NCBI GenBank assembly: GCA_964438045.1
Contig: CAYTIY010000001.1
Location: 132-64,131, forward strand
Length of the DNA stretch: 64,000 nucleotides
Direction of reading: 5' to 3'
Origin: an uncultured Bacteroidales bacterium
GTDB lineage: Bacteria > Bacteroidota > Bacteroidia > Bacteroidales > UBA1402
The notes below the pieces were generated by a model. That model was not told where the DNA came from. It was given only the letters and a program-made list of their open reading frames with translations, and made no database searches. The position numbers were made by a program, and so were the translations under genes. Positions 16,043 through 33,011 of the stretch are shown in pieces. Within the stretch, counting starts at the first letter, position 1; each line of letters opens with the position of its first letter.

Positions 16043-16552
16043 TTAATTATACATGAAGACCACTTCATACGTTCCGGTATAATAACCGGCAGGGTTTGTC
16101 AGCCCATTGGCTATGAGCAAAGTGGCTCCAATGCTGATTTCCGCTTTGCCGTCGCTCTGTCTGACCACCTGTCCGCCAACCGGAACATCGGAGGTGAACT
16201 CCTCGACAGAAATTTCACTCACGCCACTTGAAAGCAGCAACCGCTGAGGCGTCTGTGGCAACATAATTGAAACCAAGCTGTTTGGCATACCGGCCACCAC
16301 AAACCGACCGGCACTGTAGGCATCATTCATCAAGGTGATACCACCCGTTGCCGTGCGTTCACCCTCAGGGGTGATCCTGACCGAACCGCCAGATGGTTCA
16401 GGCACGATGCGTCCAAAATTCAACAATTCCGTTTCAACCGCTGTGACAGGTACGGCAATTTCCACTTCCATTTTGCCCAGCACACCGGATTGAGCCTGTA
16501 ACCCAACGGACATGACCAGTAAAATCAATGAACTAAGCAGGAACCGTTCCAT
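16043..16552 (-). CDS. DUF4402/SCPU-like secreted fibre subunit paralog
   Basis: It has a signal peptide (MERFLLSSLILLVMSVGLQAQ), the LNFGRIV motif, GSVRITPEGERTATG, and the C-terminus IGATLLIANGLTNPAGYYTGTYEVVFMYN-stop. The start was moved to the ATG at 16550-16552 because the track start at 16576 is TTG. Confidence 0.65.
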   Translation of the reverse strand: MERFLLSSLILLVMSVGLQAQSGVLGKMEVEIAVPVTAVETELLNFGRIVPEPSGGSVRITPEGERTATGGITLMNDAYSAGRFVVAGMPNSLVSIMLPQTPQRLLLSSGVSEISVEEFTSDVPVGGQVVRQSDGKAEISIGATLLIANGLTNPAGYYTGTYEVVFMYN

Positions 16553-16572
16553 ATAGGTAGTTGTCAACAAAT

Positions 16573-17097
16573 TCAATTATACGAAATACTGACAGGAAAA
16601 CTCCCTGTGTACTTACCTGCAGCCTGTGAGGTAGGAATGGTCAGGGTCGCTCCCACATTGAATGTATTGTCTACACCGATGGTCCCCGTAAGCACACCAG
16701 CAGCTTTGGACGCCAGTTTAACGGTAAAGGCATTTACATCCAATTTTTTACTTTCATCCCCCGTCATTTGGAGAACAATTATTCCCGTAGGTATACTGAC
16801 CGTATAGGTGGTACCTGTCAATCCATTAACGCCAAAGACGGCGGCAGTTGGCGTGAGGTTACCTGTATTTGGAATATAGAGGTTAGTCGGGGTTATGACA
16901 TTGTCAACACCGAGGGTTAGGGTTCCAATACCTTCTCCTGTCAAAGCTACCTTTCCAAACTGCATGTCAACAGTTTTTTCAAGAGTAACTGTCTGCACCA
17001 ATTCGGCTTCCACATTGGCACTTTCAGTAGGGTTGGCTGCCTTAACAGGCAATGTGACAACCCCCAGAGCCAACAGGACACTTGTAACGTATTTCAT
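16573..17097 (-). CDS. DUF4402/SCPU-like secreted fibre subunit paralog
   Basis: It has a signal peptide (MKYVTSVLLALGVVTLPVKA), the MQFGKVAL motif, and the C-terminus VGATLTIPTSQAAGKYTGSFPVSISYN-stop. The ATG is at 17095-17097; the track start at 17106 is GTG. Confidence 0.65.
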   Translation of the reverse strand: MKYVTSVLLALGVVTLPVKAANPTESANVEAELVQTVTLEKTVDMQFGKVALTGEGIGTLTLGVDNVITPTNLYIPNTGNLTPTAAVFGVNGLTGTTYTVSIPTGIIVLQMTGDESKKLDVNAFTVKLASKAAGVLTGTIGVDNTFNVGATLTIPTSQAAGKYTGSFPVSISYN

Positions 17098-17131
17098 TCG
17101 TTTCACAGGTGGATAGGATTTGGTTTTTGGT

Positions 17132-17650
17132 TTAATTGTAACCCACGCTCACTTCAAAGTTGGCGCGGTATTCGCCTGGCGGCAGGTCAGGAGATGCGAT
17201 GATCAACTTGCCTCCTACAGTGAAATAGGCATCGGCAGTAATGATGCCTTTCAAGGCATTTTCACCGGCCGATGAGGGTCTTGCGACCAATTCTTCGATG
17301 ACAATCTGATTCCCGTCTTTTTCCAACGTGATATCAGCTGGTAATCCAATGTAATATTCGTAGTTGGGGGTACCTCTGACCTCAAAACGAGCAGGCTTCC
17401 ACCCTGACTCACCCACAGCAGTGACACCGGTGACTAAACGTTCTCCGGAAGGCTTCAGTTCCACAACGCCGGTGGTACCATTGGCCAAACGGCCGAAATT
17501 CAGATCCTCCACCTTTATCAGCTGAAGGATGTCCAGCACCATTGCTCTGGTTGTCGTATTAGCCGTAACCGCATGTTCGGCCTTCAAGAACCCTGAACAG
17601 AGAACCTGACCAACCAGAAAAAGGATGAAAAGAGGCAATCTATTCTTCAT
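17132..17650 (-). CDS. DUF4402/SCPU-like secreted fibre subunit paralog
   Basis: It has a signal peptide, the LNFGRLA motif, VVELKPSGERLVTG, ARFEVRG, and the C-terminus VGGKLIIASPDLPPGEYRANFEVSVGYN-stop. Confidence 0.65.
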   Translation of the reverse strand: MKNRLPLFILFLVGQVLCSGFLKAEHAVTANTTTRAMVLDILQLIKVEDLNFGRLANGTTGVVELKPSGERLVTGVTAVGESGWKPARFEVRGTPNYEYYIGLPADITLEKDGNQIVIEELVARPSSAGENALKGIITADAYFTVGGKLIIASPDLPPGEYRANFEVSVGYN

Positions 17651-17658
17651 TATTCAAT

Positions 17659-18195
17659 CTATTGATAGGCTACTGTCACGGAAAAACTCCCGCTGTATTC
17701 GCCTGGAACTTGGTTGGCACCAACCGTAAGGGTCGCCCCAACACTGAATGTGGCCTGACCTGCCGTGGAAAGCACTTCGGTGGAATTGTGCTCAAAATCA
17801 TTCACAGTCATTTTCTCCGTTCCACCGGAGCGGGTCAACTCCACCATACCGTCAGCCGGTAACGAAACATAAAAAGTTGCGTCGTTTTCGCCGCTGACGC
17901 TAAAAGGGGCAGCCGAAAAATCGGAGGAACTCAAGACTGAGATTCCTCCAGTGGCTGATCGTTCTTCGTCCGGGGTCACAGTCACCGTACCTACTGTGGT
18001 TGCGCGGGAAATCGTGCCAAAATTCATGGGCGTGGTTCCCGTGTTCTCCAACGAAATGGGTGCGATGATCTTGGCGTCGATGCCAATGCCGGCTTCGGTG
18101 GAGGCAACCTGGGCATGCAGCCTGCCAGACAACCCCAGGAGCACGAACACACCCAAGGCAAGTCGGCTGATTTGGTTCATTGTCTGATTACGCAT
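17659..18195 (-). CDS. DUF4402/SCPU-like secreted fibre subunit paralog
   Basis: It has a signal peptide, the MNFGTIS motif, VTVTPDEERSATGG, APFSVSG, and the C-terminus VGATLTVGANQVPGEYSGSFSVTVAYQ-stop. Confidence 0.65.
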   Translation of the reverse strand: MRNQTMNQISRLALGVFVLLGLSGRLHAQVASTEAGIGIDAKIIAPISLENTGTTPMNFGTISRATTVGTVTVTPDEERSATGGISVLSSSDFSAAPFSVSGENDATFYVSLPADGMVELTRSGGTEKMTVNDFEHNSTEVLSTAGQATFSVGATLTVGANQVPGEYSGSFSVTVAYQ

Positions 18196-18213
18196 ACCCG
18201 GTTTGTAACTTAA

Positions 18214-18834
18214 TTAGTTGTAAGCAACGATTACAGGGAACGTTCCGGTATAAGCACCGGCATTCTGATTTGCAGCAACAGAAAGCGTACCACCTACGGT
18301 AAACTTAGAGACGCCTGCTGCTGTCAGTGTGCCTGTTACAGCATCAGCAACATCATCAAGGTTGATTTTGAAAGCATTTAATGTCATTGTATTGGTGCCA
18401 GCACCACCCACTCCGGTCAACGTGACATCACTGGTGGGCAACGTAACCGTATAATGTGAACCACTTGTACCTGTAACCGTATACATGGCACAAGAAGCGT
18501 CAGTGCCAATCAAGTCAACCGTTCCAGTTGTCGAACGTGTTCCTACCTCATCAGCACCGGTTGGAGCAAGTACAACAGTACCACCCGTGTTGCCAGGAGT
18601 AACAGAACCAAAGTTCAAGGATGCTCCGCCAAAATCACCACCAGCAGTGTTAGTTTCAACACTCAAGGCATTGACTACATTAGCTTTGGCATCGGTGGCC
18701 TTACTTGTACCTTCAAATTGTGCAAATACACTCACGGGAATGGCCACGAAAGCGGCGACGATCAAAAGAGAAATGATAATCTTTTTCATAGTCGGTTTAA
18801 AATTAGAATTGTTATGATTTTGTTTATTATCCAT
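18214..18834 (-). CDS. DUF4402/SCPU-like secreted fibre subunit paralog; first of the array and candidate major subunit
   Basis: It has the LNFGSVT motif and the C-terminus VGGTLSVAANQNAGAYTGTFPVIVAYN-stop. ATGs occur at 18832-18834 and at 18787-18789 (MKKIIISLLIVAAFVAIPVSVFAQ), and either start is possible. Confidence 0.65.
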   Translation of the reverse strand: MDNKQNHNNSNFKPTMKKIIISLLIVAAFVAIPVSVFAQFEGTSKATDAKANVVNALSVETNTAGGDFGGASLNFGSVTPGNTGGTVVLAPTGADEVGTRSTTGTVDLIGTDASCAMYTVTGTSGSHYTVTLPTSDVTLTGVGGAGTNTMTLNAFKINLDDVADAVTGTLTAAGVSKFTVGGTLSVAANQNAGAYTGTFPVIVAYN

Positions 18835-18868: not shown

Positions 18869-18876
18869 CAAAGATA
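18869..18876 (-). promoter_or_regulatory. Candidate -7 promoter box (TATCTTTG) for the subunit gene array
   Basis: The plus-strand caaagata lies 34 nt upstream of the ATG at 18834. Confidence 0.4.
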
Positions 18877-18919
18877 CGGCGACCCATCCTATGGGTCATA
18901 GAAACAATAGCATCAGTAT

Positions 18920-18960
18920 GGATACAAGCCCCCGAACAAGAAGGATACAAAAAGGATACA
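18920..18960 (-). promoter_or_regulatory. Three direct GGATACA(A) repeats, including a 16-mer identical to one upstream of the giant gene (candidate activator site)
   Basis: ggatacaa occurs at 18920-18927 and 18943-18950, and ggataca at 18954-18960. The 16-mer aaggatacaaaaagga (18941-18956) is identical to 30279-30294. It lies 72 nt from the -7 box, versus 71 nt at the other promoter. Confidence 0.45.
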
Positions 18961-18979: not shown

Positions 18980-21900
18980 TCAATACACAACCTTCACATC
19001 GTACTTGGCAGTTTCTGAGCGCAATGAAACGATATAAACCCCGCGTTGTTTTAAGGATAACTCGAAGCGTTCACCACCGAACATAGAGTGTCTTTTGAGA
19101 ACCCGACCGCTCAAATCGTACACCATTAAGGTGTAATCATCCTTCAGTTTATTGAGATCAACCACCAAATTTTCACCCTTCACGAATATATCGGCCAGGC
19201 TGGGCTTGTCTTCGGGCTGAATGGAACCGTAGTGAAGGACAAATCGGTTGACAGGATTGGAGCTAGCAGCAGTGAAGGTATAAACAGGGAATTCAGCAAA
19301 ATCATGGAAAGTACCGGTCAGCTTGTCTTCCAGAATGACGGTGTTGGTCAACGCCGCATCAAAGCGGACTTGCAGGGTATAACGACCTTCAACACCGGGC
19401 TTGAAGGCCACGGGCGTCTTGCCGTTGGCTTCCGGGGTAGTCATACGACGAATGGTGTAAGGCTGATTCCTAAGCGGCAAATACAAGCTGGGGGCTGTTT
19501 GAACGTAGCTGAACAGTTTACCCGTTCCTTTATCATTGGTAGAAAACCCGAAAGACAGCTTGACCTCATCTTTACCCAAGCCATCCAACGATGCCACCGT
19601 CAACCGAACAGCACCGGACGCCGTTGCGTCTGATGAACGCAACCACGCACTGGCGGATTCGTGAACCCTGGCCTCGTTGGCAAAGCCCAGTTGACCGGCC
19701 GAAGCGGCTTTCACGAAGAAGCCTTGCATGGGGGCAATATACCTGGATGCGCTGAGGGTGCCCAGATCATCGGGCTCGATGGAATTGTAGACCCCATAAT
19801 TATTACTGATAGAACTCCACATCCACAGGTCGTAACCCCCGCTGGTGGCATCGAGAGCGGTGCGGGTCAAGCCGGAAGCGGCCTTCCAGTCAATGCTGCT
19901 GGGGTAGGGATTGCCGACGAGGTGGAAGCCGGACTGACTGCCGGCACCATCCTTGGTTAATGCATAATTGACAAGCCCGTTGTTGAGGTATCCCGAAAAG
20001 GCCGGTGTGGCGATGGAGTCGTATAAGGAATAGAGGTAACCGCGGCCAGGCACAAAGGTTGCCGATGGATGGGCCACTGTCCAGGTGGTGTAATCCGGTG
20101 TGGTTGTATTCAGGTTATAAATCCAGGAGGCAGAAGGTTCATCCCAGACAAACAAGTCATATGCGGTACCATCACCATACTGCCCCGCCGGAGTCCAGAC
20201 AGTACCTTGTATGGGTTGAGCTGCGACTGGCGTGGACAATAAATGCCAGGCCGCTGTATCTGTGGCCATTTCACCATTGATGTAACGACGTACGGTGGCG
20301 TAAATGCCGTCCTGGTTGCAGATGAACGAACCAGTACCCGAAGCCGTTGAGTTGATGACCAGGCCCGTCTCGCCGGCGTTGTTCACAACATTGGAAGCAA
20401 CGGTGAGGGCGCCACCACCATTGATGGTCACAACGGCACCCGCATAGATTACCAAGGTGGAGGCGGCTGCCTGCACTCCGTTGTTGATCAGGGGTTGGTT
20501 GATACGCTGGGGGATATTGGCCCTGATAAGCGATGTCGGTACATAGTGAGGCATCCAATTGCCCGGTTTGGACCAGTCCGTATCCAATGTTCCCGTCCAG
20601 TAATAACCGGAAAATTCCAGAGCACCCATGGTGGGGGGTGTGGCTCTGACCGTACCGACGTAGTCGATGTTGACCAAACCAGCCAAGGCATCCAGGGTAA
20701 CAGTCGGGGTATAGTCAACTGGCATGGTAGATCCCGGGAGAATAAAGTCCGGATTCAAATTAAGACTATTAAGATCTTGACCGGTTGCCGAACGCCAGGC
20801 AGCTATGGTAGACCTGTCTGTGGAGAGGCGGCCCAGAATACCGTTGACTCCACCGGCCCAGTAATCGTTGTAGTTGATGGTCAGACCCGACGTACCCGTC
20901 AATAAAATGGCGTAGTGTTTGCCCCCACCCGACCTGTGATTGGCCATTATATTGTTGCGAATGGTGTGTGTTCCGGTTGATTCGTTACCGAAGGCGTATG
21001 TGCTTGAGGAGGCGGCTGCAACCGTACCTCCTATGTATAACGTATTGTGGAAGATGGTCAGTGTCGAGTTGCTGGCGTTTTGTAAACCATACAGCGTCAT
21101 ACCCTTGGCCAGGCTGTCACCGATGGCGATGATGTTGTTGTACACCGAAGCCGTACCTTGTTGCATGGACATGCCATACACCACACTTTCAGGGGGAGCC
21201 AAGGGCAGCAGCATACGGTTGATAAAGTTGGTAGCCAACACGTTGGTACCACTGGTAGGACCTGCGTAGTACAGACCATATACATACACTTTGGCGGTAG
21301 ACGTATTCTGCATCTTGGAGATGGTATTGCCCGTCACTTGTTGACCAGCCGTGGTTGTTGACAACAAAAGACCAATAACGGGGGCGTTGGCACCCTGAGC
21401 TCCGTTGGCAGACCCTCCTGAGGTCAAATTGATCAAGGTATTGTTCTGAATGGTGTTGGAACCGGCGCCTATATACATACCCACCAGCTTGGAGGCCTTG
21501 ATGGTTTCAACGGTTTTGTTGCCGATGTTTGCCAAGGTATTCCCACTGAACACGTTGGTGCCAGTACCTAATGAATACAGACCATATACCAGTTGGTTGG
21601 TATTGTAAGCTTCAGAAGTGGCCTGCACACTGTTAGGAGTCGTGCTGCTCCCTATCACATTGTTGCTGACAGTAAGGTTTCCGGACACAGCCGCTTTAGA
21701 TATACCGTAGATATTTGTGGCGTTGGCTGGTGTGCTGTTGGCTGCCGTTACACTACCAACAGTGTTGTTGTTACAAGTGACCGTCCCTGAACCCTGTATA
21801 CGAACACCGTAGAAGGCAGCGTCCGAGCCGCTGTTCGTCAAGGTAATGCTACCCGTGCCCGTTGGTGCACCAAATACATTACCAGTCGTGGAGCCCACGT

Positions 21901-24900
21901 TTACTGTACCCCCGGCAACATGAACACCCACCATGTCGGCTGCCCCTGTATTGTTGAAATTGAAACCCCTGAATGTATTGCCTTGAAGGCTGGTTGCCGT
22001 GGCAGTGCTGACATTGAGGTAAACACCATAGAACGTGGTGGCCTGACCAATCTTTGACCAGGTCCCCACAGCACCGGGTGCTTGACCACCCAGGAAATTA
22101 TTGATCACTTGGAAGCCTTGTCCGGTTGTGTTGTCGATACGAATCAAGGCGTATTCGCAGGCAACAGGCACCGACTGGGTCAAGGTGTTGTAGATACTGT
22201 TGCCGGACACAGTAAAGTCTGTCGTATTGGTTGACAAATAAATTACATTGGAAGAAACACCTGGTATCAAGAGGTCAAAGAAGGCATTGTCTACTATCTG
22301 AGTAGCATTGTTGGTACGGCCTACTGTTCCAGCTGAGTACACAGCGTTGAGTGGACGTTCGCTGGAATTGAGTCCGGTGATTTGATTGTAGCGCACCACG
22401 TTGCCCACGTTACCGGTACCCGTAGATGAAGTACCTAAGTGAACAAGGCCTGTCGCTGTACCTTGACCCGCCCCTTTCAGGATACAATACTGCAAGGTGT
22501 CTTGTTGGGCCGACTCAGCCAGTTTGATGGTTGAAGCGTTGGTACCCGTGCTGATATTTGTAAACGTCAGGCCGGGGGTTGATCCAATGGCGTTTACGCG
22601 GCCGTCGATGGTCACTCGGTCAGCTCCTTGTAAAAGCACCAAGGGGGCGTTCATGGAGCCAGCAACTGCAATATTCTCCCTGGTCGCGTATACGCGGACC
22701 CGGCTGTAGGAAGGGCCACTTCCACTAGCCAGCAAGGAAGCTGTCGCCGTTTCGTAGGTGCTTTTTAAAATCTTGACAGTAATGTCGCCTGTCCAAGCCG
22801 AGGAATTGATGTCGTCAAACGCACTCTTCAGTGTCGTATAAGCTTCCCGTTTGGTGTTGTTCGTCCAGATTTCCACACAGAGGAAATACTCCCAGGCACC
22901 TATGGTGGGGGCCGTCATGCTGCGTTCACTAGCCCCAAAATCAGTCAGGACGCCGGCAGGTATGCCATCCAGCAAACCACCCGTTTTGTAATCCAAAGGC
23001 GAGTTGCCACCAGCGTTGAGTAGGCCAGGATTACTGGATATACTGGCTGCATCTTTCGAGGTTGCCAGCCTCCAAGCTGCAACCGTTGTGTAGTTGCTGG
23101 CGCCCAACCGCCCCAGCATATTCGTGCCCCCCGGTACATAGTAGTCGTTGCCGTTGATGGCCGACAAAGAAGATATACCGGACAATGAAATGGCGTAATG
23201 TCGGCTTGACGTGTTGCCTCCGGTGCGGGCGTTGTACAAGATATTGTTGAGCAAGTAAGAGGCTCCAACATCAGAATATTTAATAAATGCATAAGTCAAG
23301 GCTTGAGAACCTGTTCCATTCACCGTACCAGATAGATATACCGTGTTGTGGGCTATGGTATCGGAAAAATCGGTCACACCCAACTCGTAAATGCCGTAAA
23401 TCAGATTATATCCGGTGATATTGCCCCCAAGACTGATGACATTATTGACACAGGTGGAGGAACCATTTTGAAGCCAAATTCCTGAAATGGATGGGGATAC
23501 GCTTGCTGAGGCCAACGAAAGCCTGTCTACAAAATTACCTTTGATCTGAGCTGAACCTGTACCGGTCTTATAGATGCCGACAACCTGGTTGCCAGTGTTG
23601 TTGTACGTGGATGCGTTGTAGAGGTTGCTGACCGTGTTTCTTTCCACGATCCACTTGCCTGTCCCTTCATAACGGAGCGCGTCGAGTCGTTGCGCCTGGG
23701 AGGTGGCAGCACTGGTTGTTTGCACACTTTGAGTAGTGGTGTTGCTACCAACGGTGTTGTCGCTAACTGTAAGTTGAGCATTGCCCGTACCGTATATACC
23801 GTAGAAGTTGTGTGCGTAACCGGCCGAAGAGGTAACCGTAATGCCCCCCAGGGTGTTGTTGGATACGGCAACATCGCCGCCACCACCCACATAAATACCA
23901 GCAGAACTGGCGTTGGAGGCTGCCGATGTCACGATGATTTTACCGTTACCGGCCATGGCTCCGATGATATTGCCCCTTTCGGTGCCCAGATTTACCGATC
24001 CTCCCGTCACATAAAAGGCAGCAAATGGTTGGTTGGAAGCACTGACCACGTTCAGGTTGGTGACGGTATTGCCCTGGAGGCTGGAAACAGAATCCGTCCC
24101 CACATTCACTTGGAAAGCCGTAAAGGAAGCAGCCGCCGATGTTACCCCAACGTTCATGGTATTTCCCAAACCTTGCTCCAAGGTGCCACCCACGAAATTA
24201 TCAGCCACAATATGCCCACCTCCGGCGGTGTTGTTCAGGTTGACCGCCGAATAGATGTATGCCCCTGTCGGGGTGAAGGCTGTTGTTTCGTAGAAATGGT
24301 TGCCGGTCAACATCCAATAATCGGAGCCTGCTCCCAACATCACCATGTTGGCGCTGGAAGCCTGTCGCCAGGTGTCAACGAACGTATTGTTTGAAACGAA
24401 GTTGTCACTGTTCGTCCGCCCCGTTGTTCCTTGTGAAAGAAGGGCATTGTACGGTCTGAGGGTAGTGCTCAATCCGGTAAAACGGTTGTTGTTAATGATG
24501 TTGTTGTCGTTACCTTCACCGGTAGAAGCGGTTGAGATATGCAGGATGGCTGAAGACGTCCCCGAACCAGCACCACTCAAGAGGCAGTACTGTATCTTAT
24601 TTTGAGTCGCAGACTCACCAAGTCTGACAGTGTTGGCCGACGAGCCTGTATTTAGATTGGTCAAGGTTAAGTCAATGGTTGTTCCCACCGTGTTTACCCT
24701 ACCATCGAACGTGACATTGTCGGCCCCGTTTAACCGGATGATGTCACCGTTGAGGTTCCCCCTGACCACGACATTGCTTCTGATGGGATGAATCAAGACG
24801 CTGCTGTAGTTGGCTGAACCTGTTCCGCTGGCGTTCAGTTGGGCGGTAGCGGTTTCCAGGGTGCTACCTTTTAGTTTAATGGTCAGATCCCCTGTCCAAG

Positions 24901-27900
24901 TGCCAGCATTGATGGCATCGAAGGCATCTTTCAAGGTGAAGTAAGAGGAACGGTAGGTGCTGCCGTTGAGGACATCCACGGGGAAGCACTCCCAGGCCCC
25001 CATCGTCGGACTTCCGGCACTACGTGTCAACCCGCCAAAATCTGTCGAAACACCTGTTCCCGGAATCCCGTCAAGACCAATGTTGGTCTTGTAGTCGACA
25101 GGAAGGACGCCACCCATGTTGACAAACTGCGGATCCAGAATCAGGCTATGGGTATCTTGTCCCGCCATGGTTTCCAACCATTGTTGCAAGGTCACCAGAT
25201 TACCTGAATTGATGGTTGCAAAATAAGTACCTGACCAGCCGTAGTCATTGTAATCGATGGTCAGGTTGCTGGAACCGTGTAAGTACAAGGCATAATTGGA
25301 TCCTCCACCGGAACGGGTGTTGTAGAAAACGTTGTTGCGAATGTCGCGCTGAGCCGGAGTGCCGTCTGTCCTTTCCCTGAGCGCATAAGAGGTGGTGGTA
25401 CTGCCGTCAGACACGACACCGCCCAGGTGAATGGTGTTGTGGTAAAGATTGAACGCCTTGGGAGTATTTTTCAATATTCCGAAAATGTTGCAACCTTTTG
25501 AAATGCTGTCACCCATGAACACAATATTGTTAAAGGCTGACAAGGAGCCGGTAAAAGTTCCCGTCGTATTGTGTATAGAAATGCCATGGAGGTAACAAGT
25601 GGTGCTTTCGGACAGCATCTTGAACCCCTTTACGAAGTTGCCGGCCACTGTGTCGTTCCCACTTGAGGAAGGGGTCATGTAAATACCGTAGAACTCAACT
25701 TGTGACGTCGTGTTGCTCGTGAGTCGGCCGACCTGGTTTTGGACGATGTAGTGGGGATAGGCTGATGCATACACATGGATGCCCGTCATGGACACGTTGG
25801 TGTAATTGGCGCCGTTCGCTGAGCCGTTTGACGTCAGGTCATGGATGTTATTGCCGATGATACGGGATCGACCACTCAGCACATAGATGCCATAAGTCTT
25901 TGAACTGAGAGTGGTTTCGGTGGTGGCATTATAGACGTTGCCTACTGTATTACCTTGAATCAACACCAGGTCTGTCCCTTCTGAAAAAATGCCATACACC
26001 GTCTGCGATTGGCCGGTGGCGCTGCTGCTGACTAGTACACTCTCCGGTTTCGAAGGACTACCGATGTAGTTATTCCGTATGGTCAATGTGCCAGTTGTGG
26101 GGCCTTTATAAATAGCGTGGAAACTGTGGGCGTTGGCGTTGTTGGTTGAGGATGTGGTAATGGAACCAATCGTATTGTTGGCGATGACTGTGGAGGCTGT
26201 GTTGACGGCATATATACCATAAGATGTGGCCGAAGTCGCCGTGCTTGTCAGTTGGATGGAGCCTATGCCAACGGTGTCCCCTATGCTGTTGCCTGCAAGG
26301 GCGCCCACGTCCAGGCTGCCGTTATTGAGGTATATGCCGAAGAAAGGTGAAGTGGCCGAACTTCTGATAGCCAGGTTGCGAATGATGTTGCCATGTAACA
26401 ACGTGGGTGTTGTCGTACCTGTATTGATATAAATGGGGATAAAGGCCAGGCCTCTCAAAGTGCCACTGACTCCTATCTGCAGGGGGCTACCCAAACAAAG
26501 CATATCCTGACCACCGATTGCATTGCCGGACAGTTGAAATCCATGGCCTGAAGTATTTGACAAGTTGATACCGTAGTACGTATAATTGCCACCAGGCGTG
26601 AAACTAGTGGTCTCATACAGGCTATTACCGGACAGCACCCATCCTGATGTCCCCAACCCCAGGTTGACACCATAGGAAGTCGTTGTGGTGGACCAGGTGT
26701 CGTAGAGTTTATTGTGTAGCAGTATATGGCCCGTGTTGGTGCCACCGGCTGCGTACACAGCATTGACCCTGCGTGTGCCATTGTTGGTGATGTGACAACG
26801 CTCAACCATATTGGCGGTGTTGATGCCGGAAGCACCAAAATGGATGGTACCGTTGGTGCTGGATCCCCCTCCACCGCGCACGTAGCAGTAGCGGAGAGTG
26901 TCTTGTTGGGTCGAATTGTTGAACAGTACTGTGACCGCAGATGCACTGGTACTGGTGTTGGTCAGTGTCAACGAGGGCTCCGATCCTGTTGCGTCTACCC
27001 GACCATCCAAGGTGACGTTATCGGCACCGTTGAACGTAATCAGTGGAGCGTCCAGGTTGCCCGTCACCGTCAAATTGGCAATGGTGGGGTGTACCAGCAC
27101 CCGGGTGTAGCTTGCACTACCTGATCCGCTTGCATTGAGTGCTGCGGTGGCATTTTCCGAGGAATTGCCGATCAGCTTCACAGTCAGGTTGCCGGTATAG
27201 GTACCATCGTTGATCTTGTCGAAGGCCAATTTCAAGCGACGAAAACTGGCTTTGTAGATGCCATTTTGGTAAACCTCGACCGTGTTTAGGGCAGCCAATT
27301 CCCAAGCTCCGATTGTGGGCTCAGCCGGGCGTTCCGATCCATCATAGTCGGTGGTGGTGGTTCCTTCAGAATTGGTTGCAGTCAGTACTTCAGTGGGTAT
27401 ATAGGCTTCAGCGTAGGCACCCCCTTCCTCTTCAAACACGGGGTCGGCAGAAAGGCTGGTGGCATCCAAGCTTGCACCCGTCTGCCAGGACGACAAGGTC
27501 GTGTAGGTGTCGGTCGTATAGGTAGTGGCATTATAGGCCCAACCCAGGGCGCTGTTGGTGCCGGACACATACAGGTCGTTGTTGTTACTGACGACCCCAG
27601 ACGTCGTATTCAAAGCGATGGCCATATGTTTGCCCGTGCCTGTGCCCCCGGATCTATCGTTAATCAGCAGATTCCCCGATAGATTAATGTCGGTGCTCCA
27701 ACCATCTTTGTAGAAGGCAACTGAATTGGCGTTAGTGCCTGTAGTGGTACCGTAAATATAAACCGTGTTGTGCAGATAGGTCTCCGACGCACCGCTTTTG
27801 CTGAGTATGCCGCAAATGGTATAGTTCTTGCCATCCAACCCCTCACCCAGTGATATCACATTATTGTACGCCGACAAGGGGCCTGCCCCCCAGTGATAAG

Positions 27901-30133
27901 AGTAGATACCAGCCACAATGTTGGCGGTTCCCGTTGATGCGCAACTTAATCCGTAAATAAAGTTGGCAGCAACCGTTGTGGCGGCTTCACCAGAGGGTTG
28001 GATACCGGCTACGTAGGCACCGGCGTCGTTGCGGGTCGTACCGTTGTATAAATTAGCGATGACGTTATCGGTGTAGGATTCGCCACTTTTACCCGATGAA
28101 TAAATCCCCACCAGAAACTGATTGTTGCCGGTGGCTGTCGAGGTACACTGTATGCTACGTGGCGTACTGATGCCGCCTATGGTGTTATCCTTAACTGTGA
28201 TGGAGTCAGGACTGAACTTACGAATACCGTAAAAGGAGTGGGCATTGGCTGGGTTGGTATTTTCCGCTGTCACGGAGCCGATGCCATTGTTGTGGATGGC
28301 GATGGATCCGGGTTGGTATTCGCACAGGATACCGTAAGAAGTGGCCGAGGTGGCGGACGATGTCAGTACCAAGGAACCCGTGCCTATGGTATCTCCGATG
28401 AAGTTGCCGACCTCCGAACCTATCTGGACAGCTGCTCCCGATACTTTGACACCGGTGAAAGGGGTGCTGCCTGAACTCTTGACCGTTAAATTGCGAATGA
28501 TGTTGCCTTGAATCGAACTGTTTACCGTTGTCCCGGCACGTATGCAGATGGGCGTCAGTGCAATATCCTTCAAACTGCTAGTTGTGCCAACCGTCATCAC
28601 GGCTCCTCCACACTGAGGTGCACGCCCGCCAATGTAATTATTGGAGAGGGTATACCCGCCTTGTCCAGATTGGTTGTAAATATAAATACCTGAATACTCG
28701 TAGGCTCCGTTCGGAACCAGGGTTGTTGTTTCGTAAAAGTTGTTTCCGGTCAGGTTCCAGGCCGAATTGGTTGGAGCTGACACGCCGGTTTCCCAACTGT
28801 TGAAATAGATGCTTCTGGAGGTGGCTGTGGCCGACCAGGTGTCGAAAAAGGCATTGTTGCTGACAACGTTGTTGGTGTTTGTCCAACCTTCCACGTACAA
28901 AGCAACAGGCCGCCTTGAGCCATTGTTTGTCAGCGCGTTGTTGGTCAGCGCATTGAACGAATTTGAGCCACTGCTGAGAAATGAGACGGTACCATTGGTG
29001 CCGTTGCTGTTGCCGCCGCCTTTGATCGTACAGTACGTAACTATATTGTGGCTGGCTCCATTGTTCAATTGCAAAGTAACAGCATTCCATCCATTGCTGG
29101 CATTGTTTAGAGTCAAGGCACTCGAGGACCCTGTTGCATTGAGACGGCCATCAACCGTAACATTGTCAGCGCCGTTCAGGTAGATGAGAGGACCGTCGAC
29201 GCTGCCCCCAATGGTGGCCCCCGGCACAATGGGATAAATCGTGAGATCGGTGTAATTGGTGCTAGCCTGGCCGCTTGCGTTAAGGGTGGCGGTTGCAGTC
29301 TCCGATGTGCTGCCCAAAACATTGATTGTCACAGCGTTGGCATGTGTACCTGCGTTAATAGCGTCAAACGCAGCCTTCAAGGTAAAATACCTGGCCTTTG
29401 ACGTACCCGATGTGGCTGTGACCAGGATGGGGGGCGGGCTGTATTCGATCCATCGGTTGTTGGTGCCTGAGGATACCTCCTGCCATTTATGAAAGTAGTT
29501 GCTCACACCGCTGTGGATGCCCAAATCGGCACCCGATTGACTGACATTGTCCGAACCAAAAAGCAGTACCACCTTGTTGGAGGTTTCATGAAATTGTACT
29601 TGGATATCAGCGTACAAATTGGAATTCCAATTGATCTCCAGATTTTGGTATTCAATAGTGAAAATCCGGTAAGGGGCTGTTCCTGTCACCGTTGAGCGTA
29701 CCCAACTACCAATGTCACTGACATTGCCATCATAAAGGCCCATGGCAATGATTTGCCCAAAACCGGTACTACTGGTGTTTAGCTCGTAGCTGCTGGCATC
29801 CGTATAACTTGTATTGGCTGTTCCATCCAACCGAATATACCCATTGGTACACACACTCAACAAATTGGAAGTCGTGTAGCTGTCTCCGTAAAATTCAAAG
29901 TTGAACGGCCAGGCTATCGTCGCTTGTGCGTCATCCAGGGAGACAATGCTGCTTCCGCCTGAACAATCAATCCAGTTGTAGGTAGTACCAAGGGTGCCTG
30001 TAGTTGTGGTGTAGTTCCAACTGGCAGAGGCGGCTTGTGCGATAAGTCCAAAGAAAAGGGCGGGTCCCAGCAGGAACAAGATACGGCAAAGGCGTCCACC
30101 TTCGGCGAGCGGTTTGGTCAGCGTGCGCAGCAT
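18980..30133 (-). CDS. Giant (about 3,717-aa) surface protein: NIDO/lectin-like N-domain, four ~700-770-aa parallel beta-helix modules, C-terminal region and T9SS sorting domain
   Basis: The minus-strand ORF is uninterrupted for 11.2 kb. The ATG is at 30131-30133 (MLRTLTKPLAEGGRLCRILFLLGPALFFGLIAQAASA); the track start at 30157 is TTG. Four modules each open with Y/F-x-x-LK-x-AFD-x-IN and end with PT(I/M)GA(W/L)E. The composition is rich in Thr/Ser/Gly/Asn. The C-terminal tail LMVYDLSGRVLKRHSMFGGERFELSLKQRGVYIVSLRSETAKYDVKVVY is typical of T9SS cargo. Confidence 0.85.
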   Translation of the reverse strand: MLRTLTKPLAEGGRLCRILFLLGPALFFGLIAQAASASWNYTTTTGTLGTTYNWIDCSGGSSIVSLDDAQATIAWPFNFEFYGDSYTTSNLLSVCTNGYIRLDGTANTSYTDASSYELNTSSTGFGQIIAMGLYDGNVSDIGSWVRSTVTGTAPYRIFTIEYQNLEINWNSNLYADIQVQFHETSNKVVLLFGSDNVSQSGADLGIHSGVSNYFHKWQEVSSGTNNRWIEYSPPPILVTATSGTSKARYFTLKAAFDAINAGTHANAVTINVLGSTSETATATLNASGQASTNYTDLTIYPIVPGATIGGSVDGPLIYLNGADNVTVDGRLNATGSSSALTLNNASNGWNAVTLQLNNGASHNIVTYCTIKGGGNSNGTNGTVSFLSSGSNSFNALTNNALTNNGSRRPVALYVEGWTNTNNVVSNNAFFDTWSATATSRSIYFNSWETGVSAPTNSAWNLTGNNFYETTTLVPNGAYEYSGIYIYNQSGQGGYTLSNNYIGGRAPQCGGAVMTVGTTSSLKDIALTPICIRAGTTVNSSIQGNIIRNLTVKSSGSTPFTGVKVSGAAVQIGSEVGNFIGDTIGTGSLVLTSSATSATSYGILCEYQPGSIAIHNNGIGSVTAENTNPANAHSFYGIRKFSPDSITVKDNTIGGISTPRSIQCTSTATGNNQFLVGIYSSGKSGESYTDNVIANLYNGTTRNDAGAYVAGIQPSGEAATTVAANFIYGLSCASTGTANIVAGIYSYHWGAGPLSAYNNVISLGEGLDGKNYTICGILSKSGASETYLHNTVYIYGTTTGTNANSVAFYKDGWSTDINLSGNLLINDRSGGTGTGKHMAIALNTTSGVVSNNNDLYVSGTNSALGWAYNATTYTTDTYTTLSSWQTGASLDATSLSADPVFEEEGGAYAEAYIPTEVLTATNSEGTTTTDYDGSERPAEPTIGAWELAALNTVEVYQNGIYKASFRRLKLAFDKINDGTYTGNLTVKLIGNSSENATAALNASGSGSASYTRVLVHPTIANLTVTGNLDAPLITFNGADNVTLDGRVDATGSEPSLTLTNTSTSASAVTVLFNNSTQQDTLRYCYVRGGGGSSTNGTIHFGASGINTANMVERCHITNNGTRRVNAVYAAGGTNTGHILLHNKLYDTWSTTTTSYGVNLGLGTSGWVLSGNSLYETTSFTPGGNYTYYGINLSNTSGHGFQLSGNAIGGQDMLCLGSPLQIGVSGTLRGLAFIPIYINTGTTTPTLLHGNIIRNLAIRSSATSPFFGIYLNNGSLDVGALAGNSIGDTVGIGSIQLTSTATSATSYGIYAVNTASTVIANNTIGSITTSSTNNANAHSFHAIYKGPTTGTLTIRNNYIGSPSKPESVLVSSSATGQSQTVYGIFSEGTDLVLIQGNTVGNVYNATTETTLSSKTYGIYVLSGRSRIIGNNIHDLTSNGSANGANYTNVSMTGIHVYASAYPHYIVQNQVGRLTSNTTSQVEFYGIYMTPSSSGNDTVAGNFVKGFKMLSESTTCYLHGISIHNTTGTFTGSLSAFNNIVFMGDSISKGCNIFGILKNTPKAFNLYHNTIHLGGVVSDGSTTTSYALRERTDGTPAQRDIRNNVFYNTRSGGGSNYALYLHGSSNLTIDYNDYGWSGTYFATINSGNLVTLQQWLETMAGQDTHSLILDPQFVNMGGVLPVDYKTNIGLDGIPGTGVSTDFGGLTRSAGSPTMGAWECFPVDVLNGSTYRSSYFTLKDAFDAINAGTWTGDLTIKLKGSTLETATAQLNASGTGSANYSSVLIHPIRSNVVVRGNLNGDIIRLNGADNVTFDGRVNTVGTTIDLTLTNLNTGSSANTVRLGESATQNKIQYCLLSGAGSGTSSAILHISTASTGEGNDNNIINNNRFTGLSTTLRPYNALLSQGTTGRTNSDNFVSNNTFVDTWRQASSANMVMLGAGSDYWMLTGNHFYETTAFTPTGAYIYSAVNLNNTAGGGHIVADNFVGGTLEQGLGNTMNVGVTSAAASFTAFQVNVGTDSVSSLQGNTVTNLNVVSASNQPFAAFYVTGGSVNLGTERGNIIGAMAGNGKIIVTSAASNASSAGIYVGGGGDVAVSNNTLGGITVTSSAGYAHNFYGIYGTGNAQLTVSDNTVGSNTTTQSVQTTSAATSQAQRLDALRYEGTGKWIVERNTVSNLYNASTYNNTGNQVVGIYKTGTGSAQIKGNFVDRLSLASASVSPSISGIWLQNGSSTCVNNVISLGGNITGYNLIYGIYELGVTDFSDTIAHNTVYLSGTVNGTGSQALTYAFIKYSDVGASYLLNNILYNARTGGNTSSRHYAISLSGISSLSAINGNDYYVPGGTNMLGRLGASNYTTVAAWRLATSKDAASISSNPGLLNAGGNSPLDYKTGGLLDGIPAGVLTDFGASERSMTAPTIGAWEYFLCVEIWTNNTKREAYTTLKSAFDDINSSAWTGDITVKILKSTYETATASLLASGSGPSYSRVRVYATRENIAVAGSMNAPLVLLQGADRVTIDGRVNAIGSTPGLTFTNISTGTNASTIKLAESAQQDTLQYCILKGAGQGTATGLVHLGTSSTGTGNVGNVVRYNQITGLNSSERPLNAVYSAGTVGRTNNATQIVDNAFFDLLIPGVSSNVIYLSTNTTDFTVSGNSIYNTLTQSVPVACEYALIRIDNTTGQGFQVINNFLGGQAPGAVGTWSKIGQATTFYGVYLNVSTATATSLQGNTFRGFNFNNTGAADMVGVHVAGGTVNVGSTTGNVFGAPTGTGSITLTNSGSDAAFYGVRIQGSGTVTCNNNTVGSVTAANSTPANATNIYGISKAAVSGNLTVSNNVIGSSTTPNSVQATSEAYNTNQLVYGLYSLGTGTNVFSGNTLANIGNKTVETIKASKLVGMYIGAGSNTIQNNTLINLTSGGSANGAQGANAPVIGLLLSTTTAGQQVTGNTISKMQNTSTAKVYVYGLYYAGPTSGTNVLATNFINRMLLPLAPPESVVYGMSMQQGTASVYNNIIAIGDSLAKGMTLYGLQNASNSTLTIFHNTLYIGGTVAAASSSTYAFGNESTGTHTIRNNIMANHRSGGGKHYAILLTGTSGLTINYNDYWAGGVNGILGRLSTDRSTIAAWRSATGQDLNSLNLNPDFILPGSTMPVDYTPTVTLDALAGLVNIDYVGTVRATPPTMGALEFSGYYWTGTLDTDWSKPGNWMPHYVPTSLIRANIPQRINQPLINNGVQAAASTLVIYAGAVVTINGGGALTVASNVVNNAGETGLVINSTASGTGSFICNQDGIYATVRRYINGEMATDTAAWHLLSTPVAAQPIQGTVWTPAGQYGDGTAYDLFVWDEPSASWIYNLNTTTPDYTTWTVAHPSATFVPGRGYLYSLYDSIATPAFSGYLNNGLVNYALTKDGAGSQSGFHLVGNPYPSSIDWKAASGLTRTALDATSGGYDLWMWSSISNNYGVYNSIEPDDLGTLSASRYIAPMQGFFVKAASAGQLGFANEARVHESASAWLRSSDATASGAVRLTVASLDGLGKDEVKLSFGFSTNDKGTGKLFSYVQTAPSLYLPLRNQPYTIRRMTTPEANGKTPVAFKPGVEGRYTLQVRFDAALTNTVILEDKLTGTFHDFAEFPVYTFTAASSNPVNRFVLHYGSIQPEDKPSLADIFVKGENLVVDLNKLKDDYTLMVYDLSGRVLKRHSMFGGERFELSLKQRGVYIVSLRSETAKYDVKVVY
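20609..29389 (-). repeat. Four tandem, diverged, in-frame coding repeats (about 2.1-2.3 kb each) inside the giant gene
   Basis: Module starts were mapped from the DNA: YFTLKAAFDAIN at aa 257 (nt 29389), FRRLKLAFDKIN at aa 972 (27244), YFTLKDAFDAIN at aa 1739 (24943) and YTTLKSAFDDIN at aa 2440 (22840). The last module ends at MGALEFSG (about nt 20609). Amino-acid numbers are relative to the track start at 30157. Confidence 0.8.
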
Positions 30134-30207: not shown

Positions 30208-30215
30208 CAAAGGTA
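30208..30215 (-). promoter_or_regulatory. Candidate -7 promoter box (TACCTTTG) for the giant gene
   Basis: The plus-strand caaaggta lies 75-82 nt upstream of the ATG at 30133. Confidence 0.35.
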
Positions 30216-30278: not shown

Positions 30279-30309
30279 AAGGATACAAAAAGGAAGCAAT
30301 CAAGTATCC
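30279..30309 (-). promoter_or_regulatory. Copy of the 16-mer aaggatacaaaaagga plus an inverted GTATCC half-site (candidate activator site)
   Basis: 30279-30294 is identical to 18941-18956. gtatcc at 30304-30309 forms an inverted repeat with ggatac at 30281-30286. Confidence 0.45.
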
Positions 30310-30326: not shown

Positions 30327-31157
30327 TTAAAACGAAGAAATATAGCCCACCAGGTTCTCATCATTGCCCAGGTTCAATTTCTTCCTCAGCCTGGTCCTGG
30401 CAATCCGGACGCTGTCGTACGTTTGAAACGTCATGCCCGAGATTTCCTTGGTAGAGAGATTCATACGCAAATACAAACACAACTTCATCTCGGCTGGAGT
30501 CAGATTGGGATGTTTTTCACCCAAATTCCTGAAAAATTGCTGGTCCGTATCCTTGATGCGTTGCTCTACTTGATTCCAGGATGACGTTGTTCCTTCTGAA
30601 TTAATGTCCCTGATCAAACGATCAATATTCTCAACCAACAAAGAAGGGTCGGAATTAAAACTGCTTTTCAACTGCCTGAGTTCGTTGACCACTTTGTTGC
30701 GAAACTCTTCGCTTTGAACCTTTTGCATTGACATGGCTACAGCTTCCCGTCTCTGTGCTTCAATCATCTTGTTGTAGTAGTCCCTTACCGAGAGTACGGA
30801 TTTCACACGTGTCAAGAGCTCGACATTGTCAAATGGTTTCCGGATAAAGTCAACCACACCAGCCTGAAATGCCTTTTCCAGGTAATCCTTTTCTGAATAA
30901 CACGTAATCATGATGACGGGTATGGAAGCGGTGGCCTCATCTTCCTTTAAAATCTCAACAGCCCTTACGCCGTCAATGCCGGGCATTTGCCAATCCATCA
31001 GTATCAGGTCAGGATTGGTCTCTCTGGCCTGCTTGATGGCTGAAGTACCATCAAACGCAACCATCAGTTCGCAATCCATCTTTCGCGACAGCACAATAGA
31101 AACCAATGAAACCGCATGAGGGTTGTCATCAACGACCAGGATTCGATTTTTTGGCAT
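30327..31157 (-). CDS. Response regulator: receiver domain, coiled linker and C-terminal LuxR/GerE-like HTH
   Basis: The receiver is intact (ILVVDDNPHAV..., DLILMDWQMPGIDG, VIMITCYS, FIRKPF). The C-terminal HTH is LTPAEMKLCLYLRMNLSTKEISGMTFQTYDSVRIARTRLRKKL. The start was moved to the ATG at 31155-31157. Confidence 0.75.
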   Translation of the reverse strand: MPKNRILVVDDNPHAVSLVSIVLSRKMDCELMVAFDGTSAIKQARETNPDLILMDWQMPGIDGVRAVEILKEDEATASIPVIMITCYSEKDYLEKAFQAGVVDFIRKPFDNVELLTRVKSVLSVRDYYNKMIEAQRREAVAMSMQKVQSEEFRNKVVNELRQLKSSFNSDPSLLVENIDRLIRDINSEGTTSSWNQVEQRIKDTDQQFFRNLGEKHPNLTPAEMKLCLYLRMNLSTKEISGMTFQTYDSVRIARTRLRKKLNLGNDENLVGYISSF

Positions 31158-31236
31158 AGAATGAGATAAACATGAAAAATATAGGGTGAAGATAGCTGAA
31201 AATCCACTTACTATCAAACTTTTCCTTTCATTTTTT

Positions 31237-31267: not shown

Positions 31268-32365
31268 ATGCAACCGCTTCCCAATATTCTCATCGTAGAT
31301 GATAATTCGACCAATATCCTATACCTTGAGATCATTTTAAGAAACATCAAAGCCAATTTGATCAAGGCGCTGTCGGGGCCAGAGGCCCTTACGTTGTCTC
31401 AAGGGGTTGACTTGTCGTTGGCCATACTCGATGTCCAAATGCCTGTCATGAACGGGTACGAACTGGCCATTCTGCTAAATGAGGACCGAGTTGAGAACAA
31501 GGTTCCCATCATATTTCTCACGGCAAACTTTCCCGAAAGCTCACGCATTCTTGAGGGTTATAAAGCAGGTGCGGTGGATTACATCATCAAGCCTGTCAAT
31601 GAAATCATCCTGACCAGCAAGATCAAGGTCTTCCTGGAACTCTATTGGCAAAAGAGCCGTGTGGTTGAAAATACGGAAAAGCTCATAGCCTCGGAAGCAG
31701 AACTGCTTGAAGCCAAAAAGCAGCTTGAACAGATGAACGAATACCTGATCATGGCCATCGAACAGGAGCGAACATCCATTTCATTGCAGGTTCACGATGA
31801 GTTGGGACAAGCTATGACCGCCTTCAAAATGGACTTGAGCTGGTTGCGACAAAACATCCGGAACACAGAGGCAGCCGTTGATAAAATCGAGCGGATGGTT
31901 CATATGACCAACGATGTGATCCGTAAAGTCCAACGCATTTCGTCTGAATTGCATCCGGGATTGCTGGATGATTTGGGACTTGTTCCTGCCATCGAGTGGT
32001 ACTGTCGTGAGTTTTCAGAGCGTACAGACATTGTTTGTGATCTGGATCTGGTAGAGAACGAGCAGATTTCCTCCGATGTAAACCTGGCCTTGTTCCGTAT
32101 CTTTCAGGAATCCATGACCAATGTCATCCGGCATGCGGGAGCCTCAATGGTATCCATTCAACTCGGCCATTCGCCACAGACTACCCTGACTATCGCAGAC
32201 AACGGAATTGGCATAGCGCCCGATAAGATATCATCGGGAAAATCTTTTGGCATTCTAGGCATGCGTCAACGGATCAACAAATGCGGGGGCATGGTTGACA
32301 TCACCGCCACAGAAGGAAAGGGAACCACAGTAACAGTAACCATTCCCAATACGTCACAATTATGA
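31268..32365 (+). CDS. Cytoplasmic histidine kinase with N-terminal receiver domain (REC, coiled coil, HisKA_3, HATPase_c)
   Basis: The receiver is ILIVDDNSTN...LAILDVQMPVMNGYE...IIKPV. The H-box is SLQVHDELGQAMTAF. ATPase motifs are ESMTNVIRHAGAS, DNGIGI and GILGMRQR. No transmembrane segment is present. Confidence 0.8.
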   Translation: MQPLPNILIVDDNSTNILYLEIILRNIKANLIKALSGPEALTLSQGVDLSLAILDVQMPVMNGYELAILLNEDRVENKVPIIFLTANFPESSRILEGYKAGAVDYIIKPVNEIILTSKIKVFLELYWQKSRVVENTEKLIASEAELLEAKKQLEQMNEYLIMAIEQERTSISLQVHDELGQAMTAFKMDLSWLRQNIRNTEAAVDKIERMVHMTNDVIRKVQRISSELHPGLLDDLGLVPAIEWYCREFSERTDIVCDLDLVENEQISSDVNLALFRIFQESMTNVIRHAGASMVSIQLGHSPQTTLTIADNGIGIAPDKISSGKSFGILGMRQRINKCGGMVDITATEGKGTTVTVTIPNTSQL

Positions 32366-32991
32366 ACATCCTGATTGCAGACGATCACGCCATTGTACGT
32401 GAAGGGGTCAAACAAATTGTTCGCGGACTCCCTGAGGTAAAACTGATTGAAGAAGTCTCTGATGGAAACGAGGCCTTTTCAAAAATATGTTCCACTTCTT
32501 ACGACATTGTTATTCTGGACATTTCGATGCCTGGAATGACAGGCTTGGACATCCTGCAACGCATGAAAGACAGGAATATAAAAGCCAGGGTGCTGATATT
32601 CAGCTTCTATCCACAGGAACAGTACGCCATTCGCGCCTTCAAACTAGGGGCATCCGGTTACCTATCAAAAGACAGTGCCTTTGATGAACTGGCTACGGCA
32701 ATCCGAAAAATTGCTTCGGGTGGCAGGTATGTCTCTGCCGCCTTGGCCGAACGTCTGATCTTTCATGATTCGGAACGGGAGGACAAACAACCTCACGAAG
32801 CTTTATCCGAAAGGGAATTTCAGATTATGATGCTGTTGGCCAGGGGCAAATCCGTGACGGAGATTTCTCATGCCCTATTTCTATCAGACAAAACAGTCAG
32901 CACGTACAGAACCCGGCTTTTGGAAAAGATGAACCTGAAAACCAACGCCGATCTGACCATGTATGCCATTAAGAATAAATTGATTGAGTAA
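32362..32991 (+). CDS. NarL/FixJ-family response regulator (REC plus LuxR HTH)
   Basis: Motifs are MNILIADDHAIVREG, IVILDISMPGMTG, GASGYLSK, and the HTH LSEREFQIMMLLARGKSVTEISHALFLSDKTVSTYRTRLLEKM. Its start overlaps the kinase stop as ATGA. Confidence 0.85.
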   Translation: MNILIADDHAIVREGVKQIVRGLPEVKLIEEVSDGNEAFSKICSTSYDIVILDISMPGMTGLDILQRMKDRNIKARVLIFSFYPQEQYAIRAFKLGASGYLSKDSAFDELATAIRKIASGGRYVSAALAERLIFHDSEREDKQPHEALSEREFQIMMLLARGKSVTEISHALFLSDKTVSTYRTRLLEKMNLKTNADLTMYAIKNKLIE

Positions 32992-33011
32992 TACTGACAT
33001 ATATCCATTTT

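Follow-up and report, generated by a model that had tools for sequence, protein, structure and literature searches.

A giant beta-helix protein with a type IX sorting domain and its place in a gene family that accompanies DUF4402 fibre operons in Bacteroidota

The locus described here lies in a 64,000-nucleotide stretch of DNA (hereafter the window) from an uncultured Bacteroidales bacterium (assembly GCA_964438045.1, contig CAYTIY010000001.1, positions 132 to 64,131), in which a single gene for a protein of 3,717 amino acids (aa), ending in a type IX secretion system (T9SS) sorting domain, stands directly ahead of an array of genes for DUF4402 fibre subunits. The question it raises is whether such a protein belongs with the fibre, which would be assembled by a chaperone and an outer-membrane protein, and if so, which part of it is the partner. 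A preliminary description of the locus had considered the pairing unusual and had taken the giant protein as the partner. The pairing proved to be real, but within the family of DUF4402 operons it is the rule, and although the giant protein is indeed the partner at this locus, the conserved part is a C-terminal region of ~465 aa, here termed CTa, together with the sorting domain, whereas the beta-helices are exchangeable. On the evidence of gene order and homology, CTa and the sorting domain appear to be a conserved and regular partner of DUF4402 fibre operons in Bacteroidota.

The giant gene is an uninterrupted minus-strand open reading frame (18980-30157) that opens with a TTG at 30157; its first ATG, at 30133, gives the 3,717-aa product, and NCBI's gene calls in the protein collection include an identical product. 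From the N terminus, the protein is composed of a putative signal peptide, a NIDO-like domain, four modules, CTa and the T9SS sorting domain (Table 1), and T, G, S, N and A residues are abundant in it. The G+C content of the gene is 0.51-0.53, compared with 0.45-0.49 in the flanks, and the plus-strand GC skew is also elevated over it (both for window 20001-30000); the Gly/Thr/Ala/Ser-rich composition probably accounts for the local rise in both. The coordinates confirm the earlier statement that the gene is co-oriented with the subunit array and 145 nt upstream of it, this being the gap between its stop codon and the first DUF4402 gene (ATG 18834) on the same strand. A Pfam scan of the whole protein and of pieces of it gave nothing except a sub-threshold Por_Secre_tail match, and a PDB sequence search with the giant protein returned no relative; homology searches were run with single regions of the protein.

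The evidence for a partnership comes from the comparison of related loci. A scan of genome contigs with a two-sequence chaperone alignment and narrow patterns yielded three loci, and a scan of metagenomes with a 20-sequence chaperone alignment yielded 80 (the seven DUF4402 paralogues of the window are too divergent to serve as an alignment for seeding a locus scan). Thirty-three of the metagenomic loci were informative, having at least 1.5 kb upstream of the cluster; they are partly redundant, and de-replication at 80% chaperone identity left 22 lineages. The preliminary description had proposed such a comparison, and had regarded the adjacency as fortuitous should orthologous clusters never neighbour a protein of this kind; what we found instead was a CTa homologue directly upstream, on the same strand, in 25 of the 33 loci and 15 of the 22 lineages. 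The gap between CTa and cluster, 270-850 nt, would accommodate a sorting domain and an intergenic stretch. In three further loci (L073, L078 and L083; one extra lineage after de-replication), CTa comes after the outer-membrane gene.

The genetic coupling to the DUF4402 cluster, claimed earlier for this one locus, is kept from 83% down to 44% chaperone identity. The loci nearest to the window are from Bacteroidales metagenome-assembled genomes (MAGs). One of them (L004; chaperone 83% identical) has orthologous modules 2, 3 and 4 (82, 70 and 71% identity), CTa (74%) and C-terminal sorting domain (CTD; 61%), with matching fibre genes after the CTa gene, and because the modules are orthologous one-to-one, the multi-module arrangement predates the split between the two. 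In a distant Bacteroidales MAG (L003; chaperone 44% and outer-membrane protein 36% identical), a one-module CTa protein is encoded directly 5' of genes in the order DUF4402, chaperone, DUF4402 and outer-membrane protein, and is itself preceded by two-component genes. CTa identity rises and falls with chaperone identity (r = 0.96 for 30 loci, which are not independent of one another), a correlation that indicates co-inheritance.

The passenger in front of CTa differs from cluster to cluster. Among the partner genes, complete or partial, it is absent (CTa and tail only, 591-624 aa; L041, L083) or consists of one module (~1,465 aa; L033 and others), two modules (2,349 aa; L029) or at least three modules (incomplete genes; L004, L010, L017, L024), and in other clusters it is made of Invasin_D3/Big_1/Ig_7 arrays (at least 3,055 aa; L057), PA14 (1,751 aa; L043) or PKD/Ig_7 (1,842 aa; L078). 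Several of the alternative passengers are of a kind typical of adhesins. The giant gene is the largest version of a CTa-family partner seen among the clusters examined, and this survey points to an N-terminal passenger that is exchangeable on CTa and sorting domain, with the window gene as its most expanded version seen. CTa is common to many module-family proteins, and in a search with CTa only, the commonest close relatives (42-51% identity) were small proteins of 560-645 aa, with little more than signal peptide, CTa and tail; CTa is a sizeable family that has no Pfam model.

A further link between the giant gene and the fibre array lies in their upstream regions. In the 64 kb there are just two exact copies of the 15-mer CCTTTTTGTATCCTT, both on the minus strand, one before the giant gene and the other in the 145-nt gap before the DUF4402 array, with a chance expectation of 0.16 matches in the window even when two mismatches are allowed. 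Each copy is placed 63-64 nt ahead of a match to TAnnTTTG, which is the Bacteroidetes -7 consensus. In the gap, TGTATCC repeats are spaced 11 and 23 nt, and a hairpin is situated between them and the -7 box. Orthologous loci with chaperone identities as low as ~54% (L004, L007, L010 and L016-L029) have the element at matching positions, and several carry a further copy ahead of the second DUF4402 gene. In L029 it also stands 5' of the complete 2,349-aa CTa gene, and a gene homologous to that of the window's 296-aa response regulator comes before this CTa gene. The shared element suggests that giant gene and fibre array are co-regulated, separately initiated transcription units, and we infer that it may be a response-regulator binding site that co-activates separate promoters.

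Promoter-like sites were also seen at other points of the window. A degenerate copy of the element (~33001-33018) together with a TATCTTTG box (33094-33101) stands before the seventh DUF4402 gene, whose true start probably lies downstream of the TTG at 33100. The 189-nt gap ahead of the chaperone-like gene holds another TATCTTTG -7-like box (15882-15889, minus strand), pointing to a promoter inside the fibre array.

The giant protein has a putative signal peptide at one end and a sorting-domain match at the other. By inspection, the N terminus, MLRTLTKPLAEGGRLCRILFLLGPALFFGLIAQA followed by AS, looks like a Sec signal peptide, with a basic n-region, a hydrophobic core and an AQA/AS site. The T9SS sorting domain reported earlier for the C terminus was recovered when the tail was scanned alone: the NCBIfam model TIGR04183 (cut-off 23 bits) scored 30.0 bits for the isolated last 77 aa and 28.4 bits for the last 130 aa, and the models that matched were type A and, weakly, type C only, with none of type B, the SprB/RemA kind. 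Among 27 cluster-linked tails, 19 match TIGR04183 and 10 the type C sorting model. A model of the last 544 aa, of moderate quality (predicted local distance difference test, pLDDT, 71), has several beta-rich domains; its Foldseek matches include DUF3244 structures and the NucA chain of a T9SS-substrate complex (8glk_D), the latter at a template modelling (TM) score of 0.71 that is normalised to the target, the aligned part of the model being unreported.

Between these ends, the four tandem modules described earlier were all found. The opening motif [YF]xxLKxAFDxIN stands at aa 249, 964, 1731 and 2432, and PT[IM]GA[WL]E, which closes each module, finishes at aa 945, 1715, 2415 and 3173, counted from the ATG; the starts first given (257, 972, 1739 and 2440) had been counted from the TTG and are larger by eight. 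The long consensus strings reported with them are present as motifs but hold only approximately, as module 1 has N for K and the spacing from R to PT is 3 or 4. Start-to-start spacings are 715, 767, 701 and 742 aa, and the four modules are alignable over their full length (33.6-37.8% identity; E 1e-93 to 1e-147), a similarity well outside chance. A DNA-level repeat search of the giant gene detected no long repeats and only two short ones, ~70% identical; since no long repeats remain at the DNA level, the modules are old and no assembly artefact.

The expectation that a single module would be predicted as a right-handed parallel beta-helix was borne out for module 3. Its AlphaFold2 model (59 homologues; pLDDT 95.4, predicted TM-score 0.95) is built entirely of short beta strands, and nearly all of its top 50 Foldseek matches in the PDB are right-handed parallel beta-helix proteins, including PL6 alginate lyases, phage tailspikes, PfbA, pertactin, AlgE epimerases, Ag43 and GH87. 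Because the values are modest (best E 1.7e-5, TM 0.18-0.28, identity ~10%), the model supports the fold class, with no specific family assignable. A Pfam search of all four modules for Beta_helix/PbH1-type families gave no family at E <= 5; one module homologue (P0039) carries PF13229. The module family is large and has no Pfam model; most listed members are single-module proteins of ~900-1,300 aa, usually T9SS-tailed, and Bacteroidota are their main source, while Chloroflexota, Acidobacteriota and other groups contribute some. Every invariant column in an alignment of 60 family members is Asn or Gly, and the only near-invariant charged residues (D80, R573, D668 and R674) are near the N- and C-terminal ends, not in the central part, a pattern of conservation that would be a better fit to a structural rod than to a conserved active site. 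With a beta-helix coil usually of ~22-25 residues and a rise of ~4.8 Å, the length of each module can be put, very roughly, at ~10-12 nm.

The N-terminal domain (aa 38-248) had been called NIDO-like, and intermediate sequences may point to such a relationship, but an HMM (hidden Markov model) search with the domain's own sequence gave no match to Pfam NIDO (PF06119) at E <= 5 and none in NCBIfam. A search with the domain found 715 relatives; five of ten distant ones pass the NIDO cut-off (25 bits) with 28-35 bits, in matches that cover only profile positions 2-57 of 186, corresponding to aa ~91-140 here. The domain is probably a remote relative of NIDO, for which the label 'NIDO-like' seems fair, short of membership in that family. 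It is rare among proteins with module and CTa, and elsewhere it occurs in other architectures, e.g. two such domains with one module and other domains. Because proteins that join the N-terminal domain to a module (P0225 and P0031) have no DUF4402 linkage and different architectures, the domain and the modules are best read as shuffled parts and not as operon markers. A relative of the N-terminal domain and module is also encoded in L002 (10001-19983), on a 576-kb ENA contig and not beside DUF4402 genes, as five consecutive gene fragments (672, 343, 1149, 69 and 1095 aa), which are probably frameshift errors within one giant gene.

The reading that we favour, and hold to be reasonably probable, is that the giant gene encodes a very long surface protein exported by the T9SS, a regular partner of the DUF4402 operon that is switched on together with the fibre for one adhesive structure. 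The protein would first be exported by Sec, and its type A tail would then direct it through the T9SS to the cell surface, where four rigid right-handed beta-helix rods, arranged one after another, would keep the NIDO-like head well away from the cell. Giant gene and fibre array, with separate promoters but one shared element, would probably be co-switched by a nearby two-component regulator; the DUF4402 fibres would be assembled by the chaperone and the outer-membrane protein, and the giant protein would function jointly with them.

Several observations weigh against this reading. Modules, N-terminal domain and CTa are each without any Pfam match, and in scans of the whole protein the tail stays below threshold (TIGR04183, 20.8 vs 23 bits; Pfam, 18.2 vs 27). 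Within the 64-kb window, no T9SS core genes were identified. Seven of the 22 lineages have no CTa directly upstream; one of these (L083) has CTa downstream of the outer-membrane gene, and the remaining six have none within 10 kb, where a CTa HMM found no divergent copy. The repeat element was not found in more distant clusters. Around module and CTa proteins with 25-30% CTa identity, DUF4402 genes were near none of five sampled loci, and proteins with a NIDO-like domain and module also exist away from DUF4402 genes.

A bolder proposal, which we regard as doubtful, is that the T9SS-exported protein is docked through CTa onto the DUF4402 fibre or onto its outer-membrane assembly protein, so that two secretion routes would contribute to one appendage. 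The head would then be freely exchangeable (nothing, one to four beta-helices, or Ig arrays), and this gene would carry the most extreme one.

Less probable again is the idea that the CTa protein is itself a structural part of the fibre, its tip or anchor, handled by the chaperone and the outer-membrane protein, with a tail that serves assembly and not T9SS export. Its operon membership is near-obligate, CTa divergence parallels chaperone divergence, and a variable head on a conserved tail resembles two-domain tip adhesins. Genes for chaperone-usher tip adhesins usually lie at the operon 3' end after the usher, and minimal CTa proteins are found after an usher-sized gene at the 3' end of a DUF4402 operon in both of the two cases sampled (643 aa, Polaribacter sp.; 604 aa, a Bacteroidales MAG), the order being DUF4402, chaperone, DUF4402, outer-membrane protein, PTL_trimer protein and then CTa. 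However, the tail lies above the T9SS type A cut-off, cluster-linked tails match sorting models of type A or type C in the numbers given above, the C-terminal model resembles the NucA chain of a T9SS-substrate complex, and an hhalign comparison of the CTa profile with the DUF4402 profile gave a probability of 0.3%. A hidden pilin domain in CTa, which had been considered as a candidate, was dropped after this comparison.

We judge it similarly improbable that the modules are carbohydrate-active enzymes (a lyase, epimerase or depolymerase) that remodel matrix polysaccharide instead of forming an adhesive stalk. The best structural neighbours of the module are, it is true, PL6 alginate lyases, phage tailspike depolymerases, AlgE epimerases and GH87, yet these resemblances have the low TM scores and ~10% identity noted above (for PL6, TM 0.18-0.25 and ~10% identity), and the invariant columns are Asn and Gly, the middle of the module being free of any conserved cluster of charged residues. 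In orthologous operons, moreover, the passenger is absent or replaced by Ig, invasin, PKD or PA14 arrays, which speaks against the need for a specific catalytic role.

That an unrelated T9SS cargo gene merely happens to lie beside a fibre operon is very improbable, for although related module and CTa proteins occur at loci without DUF4402, and a hairpin and a separate -7 box stand between the two units, such a fortuitous adjacency is already contradicted by synteny in 15-16 of 22 de-replicated lineages and into Flavobacteriia, in addition to the shared conserved upstream element and the correlated divergence of CTa and chaperone.

The giant protein can be set beside several known systems. With T9SS type A cargo (TIGR04183 / PF18962) it shares a large passenger and a ~75-aa terminal beta-sandwich, to which a putative Sec signal peptide, judged by eye, may be added, and it is an extreme member of that cargo class with beta-helix passengers; it differs in a tail that is sub-threshold in whole-protein scans, in the dedicated ~465-aa CTa before the CTD, and in belonging to a gene family embedded in pilus-like operons, a setting for which the paper library yielded no description among T9SS cargo. 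Like pertactin, Ag43 and PfbA of Streptococcus pneumoniae, it is predicted to display an extended rod-like right-handed parallel beta-helix at the surface, but it has four complete capped helices in tandem as opposed to one, would use the T9SS and not the type V secretion system or sortase, and shows no detectable sequence similarity to these proteins. Two-domain tip adhesins of the FimH and CsuE type likewise combine a variable N-terminal head with a conserved C-terminal part and are encoded with subunits, a chaperone and an usher-sized outer-membrane protein, as the CTa gene is; unlike them, CTa has no detected pilin- or DUF4402-like domain and is followed by a T9SS sorting domain, and no usher homology was detected in the outer-membrane protein. 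Similar in layout are proteins of ~1,290 aa with signal peptide, beta-helix, CTa and CTD (P0003, P0008 and P0010), annotated just as 'T9SS type A sorting domain-containing protein', whose modules belong to this family too (31-42% identity) and likewise precede CTa and then the CTD, but which have one module instead of four and no NIDO-like domain, with a CTa only 25-30% identical.

Searches of the paper library for DUF4402, for PF14352 and for chaperone-usher together with T9SS found nothing relevant, with no paper there naming DUF4402 or PF14352, and the CTa/T9SS-tail family within DUF4402 operons, with its exchangeable head and shared promoter element, appears to be a previously undescribed system. 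DUF4402 fibre operons number in the thousands (2,772 chaperone homologues), and a T9SS-tagged family with swappable heads offers a testable hypothesis on how Bacteroidota build and diversify adhesive surface structures, and hints that the type IX pathway may be functionally connected with a chaperone-usher-like one; the TGTATCC-repeat promoter element, being conserved, provides a handle for a regulator search.

Table 1. Features of the giant gene, its upstream regions and the neighbouring fibre genes (positions in the window).
Feature	Position	Strand	Basis or remark
Giant coding sequence, 3,717 aa + stop	18980..30133	-	single intact open reading frame
Sec-type signal peptide (aa 1 to ~34-37; AQA/AS)	30023..30133	-	judged by inspection
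N-terminal NIDO-like beta domain (aa 38-248)	29390..30022	-	transitive homology
Beta-helix module 1 (aa 249-945)	27299..29389	-	motifs and module alignment
Beta-helix module 2 (aa 964-1715)	24989..27244	-	motifs and module alignment
Beta-helix module 3 (aa 1731-2415), module used for model	22889..24943	-	AlphaFold2, Foldseek
Beta-helix module 4 (aa 2432-3173)	20615..22840	-	motifs and module alignment
CTa, ~465-aa conserved beta-sandwich-rich region (aa 3174-3640)	19214..20614	-	homology; model pLDDT 71
Type A T9SS C-terminal sorting domain (aa 3641-3717)	18983..19213	-	TIGR04183, Foldseek
Response-regulator gene (296 aa), directly 5' of giant gene	30327..31217	-	homologue likewise placed in L029
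Upstream element CCTTTTTGTATCCTT ahead of giant gene	30279..30293	-	
Bacteroidetes-type -7 box TACCTTTG, 63 nt downstream of element	30208..30215	-	
Three TGTATCC direct repeats (5' ends 18960, 18949, 18926), including 15-mer CCTTTTTGTATCCTT at 18941-18955	18926..18960	-	
Hairpin TGACCCATAGGATGGGTCG, possible terminator of giant transcript	18880..18898	-	
-7 box TATCTTTG, 64 nt downstream of element, before DUF4402 array	18869..18876	-	
Five DUF4402 subunit genes	16043..18834	-	
PapD-like periplasmic chaperone candidate, 277 aa	15020..15853	-	weak PapD_N match
Sixth DUF4402 gene	14468..15001	-	
1,154-aa outer-membrane protein (CarboxypepD_reg, OmpA, SPOR)	11004..14468	-	putative usher-like role
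Divergent unit: hybrid histidine kinase, LuxR-type response regulator (32362-32991), seventh DUF4402 gene	31268..33639	+	

Among the fibre genes, the chaperone-like protein has homologues some of which are named 'fimbrial biogenesis chaperone' or 'PapD' at their source, and in the PDB its family profile matched pilus chaperones alone, at weak E-values of 0.038 and 0.27. The DUF4402 profile gave nothing meaningful against the PDB, and an Rfam scan of the window gave nothing. Usher homology was not detected in the outer-membrane protein, whose N-terminal 850 aa gave nothing in a PDB search, and an usher role for it is putative. This protein (11004-14468, minus strand) has a conserved core of ~850 aa without Pfam or PDB relative; its shortest homologues (855-880 aa) consist of the core alone, and the window version adds OmpA and SPOR peptidoglycan-binding domains. 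Where the CTa protein of an operon is of the minimal kind, a PTL_trimer protein of 441-606 aa (with Ice_binding as well in one case) is encoded between the outer-membrane and CTa genes (L094 6580-7905; L096 6169-7989; L097 5474-7294), and open reading frames of 471-600 aa at the equivalent position in L066, L067, L071 and L086 may be its counterparts.

Two observations concern T9SS-tailed proteins more generally. Four of the five sampled loci without DUF4402 genes contain a gene for a PID_CTERM (PF28310) protein of 77-88 aa (L001 19128-19382; L087 11859-12125; L089 3896-4129; L091 11365-11601), which comes after the module protein or, in L001, after a neighbouring T9SS protein; the architecture of module, CTa and T9SS tail has here a second conserved pairing, distinct from the first. 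In the window itself, a leucine-rich-repeat protein (158-2311, minus strand) and an endonuclease I homologue (5914-6915, minus strand) have T9SS type A tails of 22.4 and 17.8 bits, both below the cut-off of 23, which is consistent with a T9SS-using host.

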